This document shows positions 8,811-38,711 of a DNA stretch of 64,000 nt, in pieces. Under the pieces are notes generated by a model, which saw only the letters and a list, made by a program, of their open reading frames with translations, was not told the DNA's origin and did not search any database. The first letter of the stretch is position 1; each line of letters opens with the position of its first letter. Position numbers and translations under genes: made by a program. The stretch lies in NCBI RefSeq assembly GCF_048403405.1, contig NZ_CP183129.1, one strand, 5' to 3'. The stretch comes from Escherichia coli. GTDB taxonomy: Bacteria > Pseudomonadota > Gammaproteobacteria > Enterobacterales > Enterobacteriaceae.

Positions 8811-8883
8811 TAATTGTGCACAGAAAACCCCCAGCTAGGCTGGGGGTTCCGGAAAGCTTTCAGCTTTAAGCCAGTTATTAAAA

Positions 8884-8952
8884 CCCCTTTTGATTTGTTA
8901 AAACACCTTGCGGTCTGGCAACTGCAAGTGTCAAACAAGAAATCAAAAGGGG
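8884..8952 (+). promoter_or_regulatory. RBS-sequestering stem-loop of IS200 tnpA
   Basis: CCCCTTTTGATTT (8884-8896) is the exact reverse complement of AAATCAAAAGGGG (8940-8952); the right arm covers the AAGGGGG Shine-Dalgarno 7 nt before ATG 8959. Confidence 0.7.
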
Positions 8953-8958
8953 GTCCCA

Positions 8959-9417
8959 ATGGGGAACGAAAAGAGCTTAGCGCACACCCGATGGAACTGT
9001 AAATATCACATAGTTTTTGCGCCAAAATACCGAAGACAGGTGTTCTACAGAGAGAAGCGTAGAGCAATAGGCAGTATTTTGAGAAAGCTGTGTGAGTGGA
9101 AAAGTGTACGGATTCTGGAAGCTGAATGCTGTGCAGATCATATCCATATGCTTGTGGAGATCCCGCCCAAAATGAGCGTATCCGGCTTTATGGGATATCT
9201 GAAAGGGAAAAGCAGTCTGATGCTTTACGAGCAGTTTGGTGATTTGAAATTCAAATACAGGAACAGGGAGTTCTGGTGCAGAGGGTACTACGTCGATACG
9301 GTGGGTAAGAACACGGCGAAGATACAGGATTACATAAAGCACCAGCTTGAAGAGGATAAAATGGGAGAGCAGTTATCGATTCCCTATCCGGGCAGCCCGT
9401 TTACGGGCCGTAAGTAA
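8959..9417 (+). CDS. tnpA: IS200 transposase TnpA (Y1 HUH transposase)
   Basis: Track ORF 8908..9417 trimmed to ATG 8959: MGNEKSLAHTRWNCKYHIVFAPKYRR...; HxH motif (HIHML) and catalytic Tyr region (RGYYVDTVG); 152 aa. Confidence 0.9.
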   Translation: MGNEKSLAHTRWNCKYHIVFAPKYRRQVFYREKRRAIGSILRKLCEWKSVRILEAECCADHIHMLVEIPPKMSVSGFMGYLKGKSSLMLYEQFGDLKFKYRNREFWCRGYYVDTVGKNTAKIQDYIKHQLEEDKMGEQLSIPYPGSPFTGRK

Positions 9418-9498
9418 CGAAGTTGGATGCAAATGTCAGATCGTGTGCGCCTGTTAGGGCGCGGCTGGTAAGAGAGCCTTATAGGCGCATTTGAAAAA

Positions 9499-9517
9499 CC
9501 TCCGGCTATGCCGGAGG
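9499..9517 (-). terminator. rho-independent terminator of mcbR
   Basis: CCTCCGGC-ata-GCCGGAGG followed on the minus strand by TTTTTC, 9 nt past the mcbR stop. Confidence 0.6.
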
Positions 9518-9525
9518 ATATTTAT

Positions 9526-10191
9526 TTAACGATTGTATTGCTGGTATAAAATAGCAATATTTTGTTGCATAATTTCAGCAAGACAATGTCTGCATCCCTC
9601 TTTGTCTTTTGCTTTTAACGCGGCGAGTAATAGACGATAGTTTTCTATACGTTCCCGTAATTCCGCTGGATTAATCGCTTCATAAAGATAATGTAAACCA
9701 GGTCCCATCCTGACCCACAGTTGCTCAATCATCTCACACAGGATGGGCATATTTGAACGATGATAAATTGCTAAGCGAAATAGCCTGTTCGCATTAATGA
9801 TTTGTTCCATGTCGCCCTTTTCTTGCGCCTGCTGTAATTTCTCGAGCAATTCCTCGAGTTCCGCCAGGTCTTGCGAGGTGAGGTTTTCAACAGCCAGAGT
9901 AACTGCCATTAATTCCAGCTCGTAGCGGATCCGATTGATTTCGTCTAATTGACGTTTCCCCACTTCCGGAACTGTAAATGCTTGCGCTGGTGCGACAGAA
10001 AGCGCATTCACCGAAACCAGACGTAATAATGCTTCACGCACAGGTGTAATACTCATACCTAATTGCTCCGCCAGATTTTTAGTAATCAGGCGTGCGCCAG
10101 GTTTTAGTGCGCCAATACTAAGCTGATGTTTCAGGTCATTCTCAACCTGCAGAGTCAAACTGACATGTTTCATTTTTTCCGTTCCAGGCAT
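9526..10191 (-). CDS. mcbR: GntR/FadR-family transcriptional regulator McbR (YncC)
   Basis: Track ORF 9526..10248 trimmed to ATG 10191 (MPGTEKMKHVSLTLQVEN..), 221 aa; N-terminal winged HTH; K-12 synteny. Confidence 0.9.
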   Translation of the reverse strand: MPGTEKMKHVSLTLQVENDLKHQLSIGALKPGARLITKNLAEQLGMSITPVREALLRLVSVNALSVAPAQAFTVPEVGKRQLDEINRIRYELELMAVTLAVENLTSQDLAELEELLEKLQQAQEKGDMEQIINANRLFRLAIYHRSNMPILCEMIEQLWVRMGPGLHYLYEAINPAELRERIENYRLLLAALKAKDKEGCRHCLAEIMQQNIAILYQQYNR

Positions 10192-19043: not shown

Positions 19044-20450
19044 TTACAGCCGTTCTTGAATAAGTTTGCCTAATTGTTTAACCGCCTGTTCTTCACGTTC
19101 TCCCCACTGCCACGCGGTATTAAAACGGAAAAAACGTGACCAGTTTTCACCGGTAGAAAACATTTTACCCGGCGCAATACTGATATGATGCGCCAGTGCC
19201 GCCAGGCTTAATTCGCCCGCATCTAACGGTTCGGGAAGCTCCAGCCAGAGAAAATAACCGCTGTCATTATGATGAATTTTCACTTCCGCAGGCAGATAAC
19301 GCAGCAGTGCTTGCCAGGCACGTTGTTTACGTTCCGCAAGCTGGCGACGCAGGCGACGAAGATGGGCGTCGTATCGGCGCGTGGAAAGGTAATCCACCAG
19401 AGCAAGCTGCATCGGTGAGCTGGTGGAAAGCGTACTCATCAACTGCAAGCGTTGAATTTTACGTGCATGTTTTCCGGCGGCGACCCAACCAATACGAAAA
19501 CCAGGCACCAGACATTTCGAAAACGAAGAGCAATGCAAAACACCATCGTGGTGATCCCACGCTTTCGCAGGCAGCGGTTTTTCCCGTCCAAAATAAAGTT
19601 CGCTGTAAACGTCATCTTCAATCAGCGTTACGTTGTACTGATTGAGCAACGCTACCAGCCGCGCTTTTTTCTGCGGCGTTAAGGTAAATCCGAGTGGATT
19701 CTGGCTATTAGTCATCAGCCAGCACGCTTTCACCGGATACTCCTGCAACGCCAGTTCCAGCGCCTTGAGATCAATCCCTTCTTTAACGTCCGTCGCCACC
19801 GATAACGCCTTCAGCCGTAACCGCTCCAGCGCCTGCAACGCGCCGTAGAAACAAGGATTCTCTACTATCACCCAATCGCCCGGTTCAGTGACCGCTTGTA
19901 AACTGAGGTTTAATGCCTCTAACGCCCCGGCGGTAATGACAATTTCATCAGGAGAAATAGTGATGCCCTGTAAGGCATAACGACGAGCAATAGCCTGACG
20001 CAGTTCTGCGTTTCCTGGCGGTAAGTTTTCAATCACGCTCATCGCCGTGGCGGTTTTGCTTACCTGCGCCAGCGAGCGGTTTAGTTGTTGGAGGGGGAAA
20101 AGTCGCGGGTCGGGAAAGGCCGAGGCAAACGGAACTACCGACGGATCGCGACTGGCCTGCAACATATCAAAAATATAGGTGTTGATATCGACTGCTTCAT
20201 CTCGAGTGACAGGAATGACTGGCGCTTTCGGCATTTTTATTGCCTGTGGCGCAACGTAATAACCCGACTGCGGTCGAGCGATAATATGTCCCTGACTTTC
20301 GAGCAACTGATAGGCATGGCTGACAGTCATAAAGCTCATGCCAGAAAGCGCCACCTGGTCACGCAACGAAGGCAAACGATCGCCAGGTTGCCAGATACCC
20401 GACGCAATCTGCTCGCGTAATTGTTCTGCAAGCTGCTGGTATTTTTTCAT
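19044..20450 (-). CDS. ydcR: MocR-family regulator YdcR (HTH fused to PLP aminotransferase-like domain)
   Basis: 468 aa; N-terminal GntR-type HTH then aminotransferase class I fold with Lys-containing SFSKCLVPGFRIGW. Confidence 0.9.
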   Translation of the reverse strand: MKKYQQLAEQLREQIASGIWQPGDRLPSLRDQVALSGMSFMTVSHAYQLLESQGHIIARPQSGYYVAPQAIKMPKAPVIPVTRDEAVDINTYIFDMLQASRDPSVVPFASAFPDPRLFPLQQLNRSLAQVSKTATAMSVIENLPPGNAELRQAIARRYALQGITISPDEIVITAGALEALNLSLQAVTEPGDWVIVENPCFYGALQALERLRLKALSVATDVKEGIDLKALELALQEYPVKACWLMTNSQNPLGFTLTPQKKARLVALLNQYNVTLIEDDVYSELYFGREKPLPAKAWDHHDGVLHCSSFSKCLVPGFRIGWVAAGKHARKIQRLQLMSTLSTSSPMQLALVDYLSTRRYDAHLRRLRRQLAERKQRAWQALLRYLPAEVKIHHNDSGYFLWLELPEPLDAGELSLAALAHHISIAPGKMFSTGENWSRFFRFNTAWQWGEREEQAVKQLGKLIQERL

Positions 20451-20528
20451 TATCGAATCGTAATTATGTGCAGATGATTCGGCAGTCTATATCAGTTGTT
20501 AAAAATGACAACTTTTCGTTAACTGTAA

Positions 20529-20966
<438 letters not shown>

Positions 20967-20990
20967 GTCATTAACCTTTTTAATTGGCGA

Positions 20991-21167
20991 TTAACTCAAA
21001 CCGAGTTGCTTCAGGATTGCTTTACGCAATGGTTCTTTTATCTCATCACTGGGGTGACGCGGCATGACACTGCGTCGCCCTTGAAACCTGAGTTTCAAAT
21101 GGTTGCTGCCATTCGCCACATCGACGCCCTGAGATTCGAGCCAACGTCTGAACTCGCTTTGTTTCAC
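20991..21167 (-). CDS. hicA: HicA mRNA interferase toxin
   Basis: 58-codon frame from GTG 21165-21167 to TAA 20991-20993: (M)KQSEFRRWLESQGVDVANGSNHLKLRFQGRRSVMPRHPSDEIKEPLRKAILKQLGLS; below ORF-track cutoff, found by hand. Confidence 0.8.
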   Translation of the reverse strand: MKQSEFRRWLESQGVDVANGSNHLKLRFQGRRSVMPRHPSDEIKEPLRKAILKQLGLS

Positions 21168-21388
21168 ATCACCTCCCTGCCGCTGAGTATATCAACAAAG
21201 TAAACATTAGTGTTTACCTCCGTGTGTAATTTGCTCGAAAATAGCACTAAATCGCCGCAACGGCAGAATGCAATGCAAAATCAGGAAGGAAGATTCCAGA
21301 ATTTCTTTGCGCTAATTTGCAAAACTGAATAATAACCTCAAGAAACGATCGGCATCATAGCGGCAAAAGGTCAGAAAAAGGTGGTGGG

Positions 21389-24281: not shown

Positions 24282-24372
24282 GTGACTCCTCCGGCAAAGC
24301 GGAAGTTTATCACTTGTGCGTTATAACGGACAAATGCTACGGTGCCTGTATGCTATAACGCACGAGGTGACT

Positions 24373-25545
24373 ATGCGTCTGTTTTCTATTCCTCCACCCA
24401 CGCTACTGGCGGGGTTTCTGGCGGTATTAATTGGCTACGCCAGTTCAGCGGCAATAATCTGGCAAGCAGCGATTGTCGCCGGAGCCACCACTGCACAAAT
24501 CTCTGGCTGGATGACGGCGCTGGGGCTGGCAATGGGCGTCAGTACGCTGGCTCTGACATTATGGTATCGCGTACCTGTTCTCACCGCATGGTCAACGCCT
24601 GGCGCGGCTTTGTTGGTCACCGGATTACAGGGACTAACACTTAACGAAGCCATCGGCGTTTTTATTGTCACCAACGCGTTAATAGTCCTCTGCGGCATAA
24701 CGGGACTCTTTGCTCGTCTGATGCGCATTATTCCGCACTCGCTTGCGGCGGCAATGCTTGCCGGGATTTTATTACGCTTTGGTTTACAGGCGTTTGCCAG
24801 TCTGGATGATCAATTTACGTTGTGTGGCAGTATGTTGCTGGTATGGCTGGCAACCAGGGCCGTTGCGCCGCGCTATGCGGTAATTGCCGCGATGATTATT
24901 GGGATCGTCATCGTTATCGCGCAAGGTGACGTTGTCACAAATGATGTTGTCTTTAAACCCGTTCTCCCCACTTATATTACCCCTGATTTTTCGTTTGCTC
25001 ACAGTCTGAGCGTTGCACTCCCCCTTTTTCTGGTGACGATGGCATCGCAAAACGCACCGGGTATCGCAGCAATGAAAGCTGCCGGGTATTCGGCTCCTGT
25101 TTCGCCGTTGATTGTGTTTACTGGATTGCTGGCGCTTGTTTTTTCCCCTTTCGGCGTTTATTCCGTCGGTATTGCGGCAATCACCGCAGCTATTTGTCAA
25201 AGCCCGGAAGCGCATCCAGATAAAGATCAACGTTGGCTGGCAGCTGCCGTTGCCGGCATTTTTTATTTGCTCGCAGGTCTTTTTGGTAGTGCTATTACCG
25301 GGATGATGGCTGCCCTGCCCGTAAGTTGGATCCAGATGCTGGCAGGTCTGGCGCTGTTAAGTACCATTGGCGGCAGTTTGTATCAGGCGCTGCATAATGA
25401 GCGTGAGCGAGACGCGGCGGTGGTGGCATTTCTGGTAACGGCAAGTGGATTGACGCTGGTCGGGATTGGTTCTGCGTTCTGGGGATTAATTGCCGGAGGC
25501 GTTTGTTACGTGGTGTTGAATTTAATCGCTCACAGAAACCGATAA
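24373..25545 (+). CDS. ydcO: BenE-family inner membrane transporter YdcO
   Basis: Track ORF 24316..25545 trimmed to ATG 24373 (MRLFSIPPPTLLAGFLAVLIGY..), 390 aa, highly hydrophobic. Confidence 0.85.
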   Translation: MRLFSIPPPTLLAGFLAVLIGYASSAAIIWQAAIVAGATTAQISGWMTALGLAMGVSTLALTLWYRVPVLTAWSTPGAALLVTGLQGLTLNEAIGVFIVTNALIVLCGITGLFARLMRIIPHSLAAAMLAGILLRFGLQAFASLDDQFTLCGSMLLVWLATRAVAPRYAVIAAMIIGIVIVIAQGDVVTNDVVFKPVLPTYITPDFSFAHSLSVALPLFLVTMASQNAPGIAAMKAAGYSAPVSPLIVFTGLLALVFSPFGVYSVGIAAITAAICQSPEAHPDKDQRWLAAAVAGIFYLLAGLFGSAITGMMAALPVSWIQMLAGLALLSTIGGSLYQALHNERERDAAVVAFLVTASGLTLVGIGSAFWGLIAGGVCYVVLNLIAHRNR

Positions 25546-25579
25546 TAAAAAGCGCCATCTTACGATGGCGCGGCTGGAA

Positions 25580-26248: not shown

Positions 26249-26550
26249 GAATAGTTTCCTGAGATGATTATATTACTTTCTAAGTTATAGCAAAAAGCGC
26301 CGCTTCGTGTTGTGGCAAAAAAAGTGTTGGTGAAAATAAATTTTTTAGCCCCTTTTCAGACGACATAGTCAATGCCGAAAAAGGGGCTAAGTCAATCATC
26401 AGTAGTTAAATTTCAGTAAGTTAAGCGGCTAAAAAACTTCGACTACTGTGATTGATTTCACATCCCTTCGATAAAAAATATGCTTACCGAAAAGAAGAAC
26501 AGTAAACCATCTCAGCGTGGGGAATTTTCACGCGCTTTGTTCTTACCGGA

Positions 26551-36304: not shown

Positions 36305-36611
36305 ACCAAAAACCTCTTTGCGTCACATTTTTACAACAATTATGGCAGAGAAGAATAATGCCATTGGAATGAAGAGAGTAACGAATGATTAAACTGGCTA
36401 AACCGAATGACGAAAAATTCTGGAAAACAGCACGCAATTTCGTGAAGTGATTATTTTCGTCCCTAAGGAAACCTCATAGGATGCCTGCGGGTGCCTGAGA
36501 CTTTCTGTTTTCAGGCTAACCGGGAATCAGAAAGACGAAGGCCCCGACCGATATTTCTATCAACTGTACTGCACCCATTTTGTTGGACGATGAAATGGAA
36601 TAGCCCCTAAT

Positions 36612-37133
36612 ATGTCAAAGCCAAAATACCCTTTTGAAAAGCGCCTTGAAGTCGTGAATCACTACTTCACAACTGATGATGGTTACAGGATCATCTCGGC
36701 ACGTTTTGGTGTCCCCCGAACCCAGGTCAGGACATGGGTTGCCCTCTATGAAAAACATGGAGAAAAAGGTTTAATTCCCAAACCTAAAGGCGTTAGTGCT
36801 GATCCAGAGTTGCGTATTAAGGTCGTGAAAGCTGTGATCGAGCAGCACATGTCCCTTAATCAGGCTGCTGCTCACTTTATGCTTGCTGGTAGTGGTTCTG
36901 TAGCCAGGTGGCTGAAGGTCTATGAAGAGCGCGGAGAAGCTGGTTTACGCGCGCTCAAGATTGGCACCAAAAGAAACATTGCAATATCAGTTGATCCAGA
37001 AAAAGCGGCATCAGCATTGGAGCTGTCAAAAGACCGACGCATTGAGGATCTTGAAAGGCAAGTTCGATTTCTTGAAACGCGGCTTATGTATCTAAAAAAG
37101 CTGAAAGCCTTAGCTCATCCCACGAAAAAGTAA
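36612..37133 (+). CDS. insJ: IS150 OrfA (InsJ), HTH DNA-binding protein
   Basis: 173 aa MSKPKYPFEKRLEVVNHYFTTDDGYRIISARFGVPRTQVRTWV..; slippery heptamer A_AAA_AAG at 37094-37100 near its 3' end. Confidence 0.9.
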   Translation: MSKPKYPFEKRLEVVNHYFTTDDGYRIISARFGVPRTQVRTWVALYEKHGEKGLIPKPKGVSADPELRIKVVKAVIEQHMSLNQAAAHFMLAGSGSVARWLKVYEERGEAGLRALKIGTKRNIAISVDPEKAASALELSKDRRIEDLERQVRFLETRLMYLKKLKALAHPTKK

Positions 37134-37981
37134 AAGTACTCAACGAGCTAAGGCAGTTTTATCCTCTTGATGAGCTTCTCAGGGCTGCGGAGATACCGCG
37201 CAGTACGTTTTATTACCATCTAAAGGCTCTCAGCAAGCCTGACAAGTATGCGGACGTTAAAAAGCGTATTGGTGAGATTTATCACGAGAATAGAGGCCGA
37301 TACGGATACCGTAGGGTAACGCTGTCTCTTCATCGAGAAGGGAAACAGATTAACCATAAAGCTGTTCAGCGCCTGATGGGAACCCTCTCACTTAAAGCAG
37401 CGATTAAGGTCAAGCGATACCGCTCTTACAGAGGAGAGGTAGGGCAAACCGCCCCTAATGTTCTCCAAAGAGATTTCAAGGCTACGCGGCCAAACGAGAA
37501 GTGGGTTACCGATGTTACTGAATTTGCAGTCAATGGGCGCAAGCTGTATTTGTCTCCAGTAATAGATCTCTTCAACAACGAAGTTATTTCTTACAGCCTT
37601 TCGGAAAGACCAGTGATGAACATGGTTGAGAATATGCTCGATCAGGCATTCAAAAAGCTTAATCCTCACGAGCATCCTGTTCTGCACTCTGACCAGGGAT
37701 GGCAGTATCGTATGAGAAGATATCAAAATATCCTTAAAGAACATGGTATTAAACAAAGCATGTCCAGAAAAGGCAATTGTCTGGATAATGCTGTGGTGGA
37801 GTGTTTCTTTGGAACCTTAAAGTCGGAGTGTTTTTATCTTGATGAGTTCAGTAATATAAGCGAACTGAAGGATGCTGTTACGGAATATATTGAATACTAC
37901 AACAGCAGAAGAATTAGCCTGAAATTAAAAGGTCTGACTCCAATTGAATATCGGAATCAGACCTATATGCCTCGTGTTTAA
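37130..37981 (+). CDS. insK: IS150 OrfB (InsK), DDE transposase; made as OrfAB fusion by -1 frameshift
   Basis: Open -1 frame from the slippery site to 37981 (..[60 protein letters not shown]..); the track shows only the part after the first Met (37376). Confidence 0.8.
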
Positions 37982-38023
37982 CTGTCCAACTTTTTGGGGT
38001 CAGTACACAACCGAGGCCAACGA

Positions 38024-38476: not shown

Positions 38477-38647
38477 ATAACCTCCATGGTTTATCGAATC
38501 TTATGTTCGATTTGAACGTTATACGCTGGTTTATTTTGATACCGTTGATGAGATCAAAGATCGGGCGAATTGATTAAAGATAAGCCAGATGGACGTATGG
38601 ATAAGGATTATGGTTTTATTTGTCATACAAATAAATATAATAGGCGC

Positions 38648-38711
38648 TTCCGATGTAGACCCGTATTCTTCGCCTGTACCACGGGTCGGTTTTAGTACAG
38701 GCGTTTTCTTT
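38648..38711 (+). ncRNA. rydC: RydC small regulatory RNA (Hfq-dependent)
   Basis: CTTCCGATGTAGACCCGTATTCTTCGCCTGTACCACGGGTCGGTTTTAGTACAGGCGTTTTCTT recognised from memory as RydC; TATAAT at 38634-38639 upstream; ends in GCCTGTAC..GTACAGGC hairpin plus U-run. Confidence 0.8.

Follow-up and report, generated by a model that had tools for sequence, protein, structure and literature searches.

The IS-free ydcO-ydcL spacer of an Escherichia coli strain is an unoccupied, most likely ancestral, IS609 insertion site

Background

In Escherichia coli K-12, the convergent genes ydcO and ydcL are separated by a copy of the insertion sequence IS609, whereas in the 64-kb stretch of E. coli DNA analysed here (called the window throughout) they are separated by a short spacer. 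This raises the question whether the spacer is the site as it was before IS609 arrived or as it is after IS609 left. IS609 belongs to the IS200/IS605 family, whose members are mobilized in single-stranded form ("peel and paste"). It is established for IS200/IS605 elements that they insert next to a motif, do not duplicate the target and excise without a scar (bioRxiv 10.1101/2023.03.14.532601). A literature search on IS609 and InsQ/TnpB turned up no work on how IS609 chooses its targets or on the activity of InsQ. The locus had been picked out in an earlier reading of the window (the sequence-only reading), which placed IS609 (insQ/ydcM) between ydcL and ydcO of K-12 and proposed that the window carries the empty site.

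Results

The ydcO-ydcL locus in the window

The features of the locus are as follows.

24316..25545, plus strand: ydcO open reading frame, 409 aa, from the ORF listing
24334..25545, plus strand: ydcO coding sequence, BenE-family transporter, equal to RefSeq CDS 20019..21230 of the GN02461 locus
25546..25579, no strand: IS-free spacer between convergent ydcO and ydcL, 34 bp, taaaaagcgccatcttacgatggcgcggctggaa
25580..26248, minus strand: ydcL, 222 aa, DUF3313 lipoprotein, WP_001261013.1 in GN02461 and b1431 in MG1655
25542..25571, minus strand: intrinsic-terminator-like element of ydcL, from terminator scan and RNA fold

The convergent arrangement and the 34-bp gap at 25546-25579 had been given in the sequence-only reading, and the ends of the open reading frames place the gap at exactly these coordinates. 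The ydcO product was assigned to the BenE family by a match to TIGR00843 (723 bits); its stop codon TAA occupies 25543-25545, and the protein ends in NLIAHRNR. Both gene names are those used by RefSeq in GN02461, a complete genome that is 99.98% identical to the window over 41.9 kb. The gene pair is flanked by sutR and rlhA to one side and by tehB and tehA to the other. The 34-bp gap is also present in LF82, O157:H7 Z852, ATCC 25922 and 2009C-3133.

Most of the spacer is taken up by a hairpin that begins 8 nt past the ydcL stop. In the terminator scan it extends over 25571..25552 and consists of an 8-bp stem (GCGCCATC/GATGGCGC), in which six of eight pairs are G-C, and a GTAA loop; beyond it, at 25551..25542, comes the tail TTTTTATTAT, which overlaps the stop codon of ydcO. 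The centroid of the RNA fold is the same hairpin (-16.2 kcal/mol, z = -2.8). With its stem-loop and T-run, the element is a predicted Rho-independent terminator of ydcL, and it probably works as one. A search of the window and of the MG1655 IS609 locus with Rfam at the gathering score found no family in the spacer, in IS609 or at its right end.

IS609 in K-12 and the exact insertion point

In MG1655 (NC_000913.3), the feature "insertion sequence:IS609" is annotated at 1503161..1504908 (1748 bp) between ydcL (b1431) and ydcO (b1433), in agreement with the sequence-only reading. Its genes are insQ (b1432) and yncK (b4578), a pseudogene of tnpA, and a second, K-12-like genome shows the same layout. 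Alignment with the K-12 ydcL-ydcO region, which the sequence-only reading had named as the check on its proposal, put insQ at no other K-12 position. When the 64-kb window was searched with K-12 IS609 by blastn, only chance matches of at most 25 bases were found.

At base level, the match of the window to the ydcO side of K-12 stops at 25544 and the match to the ydcL side begins at 25545, with neither overlap nor missing bases. The K-12 junctions show no target duplication and no scar, and in the window there is neither a target-site duplication nor a scar nor any leftover IS sequence. Its sequence is exactly that expected of an unoccupied site, which bears out the proposal of an empty site. 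The insertion point lies between bases 25544 and 25545 and so splits the stop codon of ydcO (TA/A). The locus had thus been named correctly, but the point itself is one base upstream of the interval 25546-25579 in which the insertion had been placed.

The flanks in the window are orthologous to those of this documented IS609 copy. Aligned to the two K-12 sides, they are 98-99% identical, and in a second comparison the flanks diverge by 3.4% on one side and 2.0% on the other (96.6-98.0% identity). Flanking genes and orientation are the same, so that the window equals K-12 minus the 1748-bp element, apart from three substitutions among the 34 spacer positions (loop TTAC in the window and TAAC in K-12; GGCTGG and GTCTGG; AAT and AAC). 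The end of ydcO differs, however: the window uses the gene's own TAA, whereas the K-12 frame runs on into IS bases (CGA TAT TGA) and YdcO ends in DRNRY, one residue later than in the window. A further difference is at position 25529, where YdcO has His in the window and Asp in K-12, four residues before the C-terminus.

A TTTAT motif abuts the right-hand flank

The target motif lies on the strand of ydcL, within the T-tract of the terminator-like hairpin.

25545..25549, minus strand: unoccupied IS609 attachment motif 5'-TTTAT-3'; the K-12 IS609 left end joins directly 3' of it

Copies of IS609 at four different loci (K-12; O157:H7 493/89, in a TetR-family gene; B1.H1.39, in a DUF3251 gene; GPT24-02, between tam and lsrG) all read ...TTTAT/CCGGTGCGCC...GATGTCAA/, where the slash marks a junction. 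TTTAT is thus found directly 5' of the left end in 4/4 independent copies, and because it precedes all copies at unrelated loci, with the same ends, it is the target-adjacent motif of IS609. In the orientation of the element, the K-12 junctions are gcgcTTTTTAT/CCGGTGCGCC...GGAGGATGTCAA/tatcggtttctgtcagcg. The minus strand of the window reads gcgcTTTTTAT/TATCGGTTTCTGTGAGCG at the site (also written GCGCTTTTTAT/TATCGG and GCGCTTTTTAT/TATCGGTTTC); the motif is intact and abuts the right-hand flank on the top strand of the element.

IS609 thus inserts directly 3' of the minus-strand TTTAT without target duplication, and a genome that lacks the element shows the bare motif abutting the right-hand flank, as the window does. 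Both genes retain their native 3' ends in the window strain; K-12 retains the hairpin, but its ydcO stop is rebuilt from the IS end, with one tyrosine added.

The layout, in which the motif abuts the flank with no duplication and no scar, is that of the "donor joint" or homologous empty sites of IS608, ISDra2 and ISGst, and TTTAT is identical to the motif given for ISGst TnpB2 (Meers et al., bioRxiv 10.1101/2023.03.14.532601). Unlike these donor joints, the window site gave no evidence of an origin by excision.

Frequency of the empty and occupied states

The state of the site was surveyed in 5426 complete E. coli genomes.

Empty junction: 2044/5426 (~38%); 121-bp probe across the empty junction, at least 80% matched
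IS609 at the site: 3251/5426 (~60%); IS609 plus 600 bp of each flank, at least 80% matched
IS200C at the site: 90/5426 (1.7%); IS200C plus about 300 bp of each flank, query from elppa5
Other or unresolved state: about 40/5426; the remainder

The site is empty in, for example, LF82, ATCC 25922 ("Seattle 1946") and O157:H7, and occupied by IS609 in K-12 derivatives, BL21, O111:NM and O103:H2. Going by the phylogroups that we presume for these named strains, IS609 seems to be present in A/B1 and absent in B2 and E. Presence or absence of IS609 at this site is an already known, ordinary strain-to-strain polymorphism.

An empty junction could also be produced by an assembly that collapses an IS609 copy present in the strain. 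We found no point in support of such an artefact, which is extremely improbable: the junction is clean and matches 2044 complete genomes in register, nine independent complete genomes are 100.0% identical to the window over the surrounding 9 kb, and a collapsed repeat would break the contig and not yield a perfect empty site.

Identity to the window of at least 99% was found in 248 of the 5388 matching genomes over the 121-bp junction and in 11 of 5426 over 9 kb; with so few close matches, the window strain belongs to a sparsely sampled lineage, together with GN02461, MS 69-1, NRZ14408 and their relatives. The 9-kb region also shows a 36-bp length difference in many genomes. It was considered as a possible feature of the IS609 junction and rejected, since it is located in the ydcL-tehB intergenic region, which measures 302 bp in the window (26249-26550) and 338 bp in 2009C-3133.

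IS200C at the same spacer, and other elements of the window

A second element is found in the spacer of other genomes.

25547..25550, no strand: IS200C insertion position in 90 other E. coli genomes, the exact base being ambiguous within an A-run; IS200C is absent there in the window

In elppa5 (NZ_CP083503.1), the IS200C junctions read CGATAATAAA/TATCCTCC...GTGCACA/AAAAAGCGCC and lie within about 5 bases of the IS609 insertion point. Like IS609, IS200C is a member of the IS200/IS605 family and sits in the same A/T-rich stretch beside the ydcL hairpin; unlike IS609, it is an element of about 0.7 kb with tnpA only.

The window itself carries IS200C at 8814-9526, between pqqU and mcbR, in a copy 100% identical to that in the elppa5 spacer. 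A 1443-bp IS150 with a target duplication of 3-4 bp is found at about 36565-38007; compared with MG1655, it has inserted into the toxin-antitoxin locus sokB/mokB-hokB. The sequence-only reading had viewed the empty site as consistent with an IS complement different from that of K-12, citing these two elements. Both are real. K-12 also carries one copy of IS150 (PMC5009759, Table 1), so the two strains differ only in where IS150 sits and in whether IS200 is present.

Only three Rfam matches were obtained in the window. STnc490 (8826-8949) lies inside IS200C. The "sok" match (36489-36641) spans the left junction of IS150, and hokB follows just downstream of that element. The RydC small RNA (38647-38710; 92.5 bits, gathering score 48) is next to cybB, as in K-12.

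Decay of IS609 in place and retention of insQ

Four copies that occupy the site were examined, namely those of a K-12-like genome (locus L001, 5273-6914), A34 (L048, 834-2474), BE2-5 (L049, 834-2541) and O111:NM (L053, 2638-4355). In all four tnpA is dead, and in all four insQ is intact (402 codons). The tnpA lesions are as follows.

K-12: nonsense mutation, codon 96
BE2-5: nonsense mutation, codon 76
A34: frameshift
O111:NM: frameshift and stop

Between lineages, the copies at the site diverge by ~1.7%. This divergence and the differing tnpA lesions indicate an old insertion that was inherited and decayed in place. In K-12 mutation-accumulation lines, IS609 never moved (PMC5009759). Pairwise dN/dS of insQ among the four copies is 0.18-0.36, with small counts, and suggests that selection may maintain the TnpB-like insQ after loss of the transposase.

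Was the site ever occupied in the window lineage?

To place the empty state relative to other species, species-representative genomes were scanned with a pattern for the YdcL C-terminus, which yielded 39 loci from other enterobacterial genomes. Homologues of InsQ or of the IS609 TnpA were found in none of the 39. The 34-bp IS-free gap with the same hairpin is present in E. whittamii, in Escherichia sp. E1V33 and in the GTDB representatives E69 and SCPM-O-B-8794. In place of the E. coli AAAAAG, these outgroups have CAGAAG, CCGAAG or AAGAAG; the TTTAT motif was therefore acquired later.

One other Escherichia lineage retains a trace of IS609. Escherichia sp. MOD1-EC7003 (L028, 263-308) carries a 46-bp hybrid of the right-end and left-end hairpins of IS609 at the same TTTAT beside the ydcL terminator, and it has lost most of sutR and ydcO. 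A similar loss of sutR-ydcO is seen in E. albertii, which has no IS remnant. The remnant implies either repeated hits at the site or a hit that predates the A/B1 lineages. Within E. coli no solo 46-bp remnant was found, the 12 apparent matches being left ends of full-length IS609 beside ydcL.

The flanking DNA of 12 genomes (3.4 kb) was used for a neighbour-joining tree (163 variable sites, recombination ignored). The four occupied genomes are grouped in it and the window is at the base of E. coli, falling outside the smallest clade of the four in 188/200 bootstraps. A clean clade of IS609-bearing genomes was not obtained: strict monophyly of the occupied four has weak support (87-93/200), since O157:H7, which is empty, often falls within their group. 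We thus relied only on the exclusion of the window. Flanks and occupancy are also imperfectly linked, as the spacer allele of the window (TTAC loop, GGCTGGAAT) is found beside IS609 in A34 and BE2-5.

This sharing of the allele and the nesting of O157:H7 speak for a secondary loss, in which an ancestor of the window strain would have carried IS609 and TnpA, its own or acting in trans, would have excised it precisely and restored the original sequence. Excision in the family is scarless (bioRxiv 10.1101/2023.03.14.532601), an intact IS609 tnpA exists in E. coli (e.g. in O157:H7 493/89), and tnpA at the site decayed independently in each lineage and so was once functional there. Such a loss is nevertheless unlikely in view of the position of the window outside the occupied clade (188/200), the empty outgroup species, the lack of any IS609 copy within the 64-kb window, and the immobility of IS609 in the mutation-accumulation lines (PMC5009759).

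The empty ydcO-ydcL segment might instead have been regained by homologous recombination with DNA of an empty-site strain. The poorly resolved local tree fits regional recombination, and only 11 of the 5426 genomes reach 99% identity with the window in this region. However, over 42 kb the window and GN02461 are 99.98% identical and no mosaic boundary is visible close to the site, the two sides diverge from K-12 to a similar extent (3.4% and 2.0%), and nothing specifically calls for allele replacement, which we regard as very unlikely. Even taken together, scarless excision and allele replacement in the window lineage are improbable.

We infer that the window lineage was never occupied by IS609. 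Scarless excision leaves an identical sequence, so the site by itself is no proof of this. Overall, the 34-bp spacer is, with a probability of about 0.88, the unoccupied and most likely ancestral state of the site that holds IS609 in K-12 and in ~60% of sequenced E. coli.

Discussion

The empty state is common to over a third of sequenced E. coli; it is not special to the window strain and has little importance in itself. What the site does provide are the boundaries of IS609 and its TTTAT target at base resolution, from which the extra C-terminal tyrosine of K-12 YdcO and its stop codon are recognized as products of IS609.

A more tentative proposal concerns the site itself. Single-strand transposons may land repeatedly in the T-tract of the ydcL terminator, where IS609 is found in 60% of genomes and IS200C in 1.7%, and where another Escherichia lineage has a remnant of IS609; the empty allele may also be a natural target of a K-12-type InsQ (TnpB) nuclease. 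We consider this combined proposal unlikely. The repeated use of the site by two family members lends indirect support to its putative competence for TnpA insertion or InsQ cleavage. Speculatively, and on the model of TnpB systems already characterized (bioRxiv 10.1101/2023.03.14.532601), K-12 InsQ would take its guide from the right-end flank TATCGGTTTCTGTCAGCG, and TTTAT would serve as the adjacent motif; the empty site of the window (TTTAT, then TATCGGTTTCTGTGAGCG) matches the K-12 right-end flank (...TGTCAGCG) at 17/18 positions.

An active InsQ would cut empty alleles and favour their conversion to the IS-bearing allele when DNA is exchanged between lineages. Such cutting, if it does occur, could explain why insQ is intact (dN/dS 0.18-0.36) while tnpA has decayed independently. 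The window offers a natural empty-site sequence with which K-12 InsQ/TnpB may be tested as an RNA-guided nuclease.
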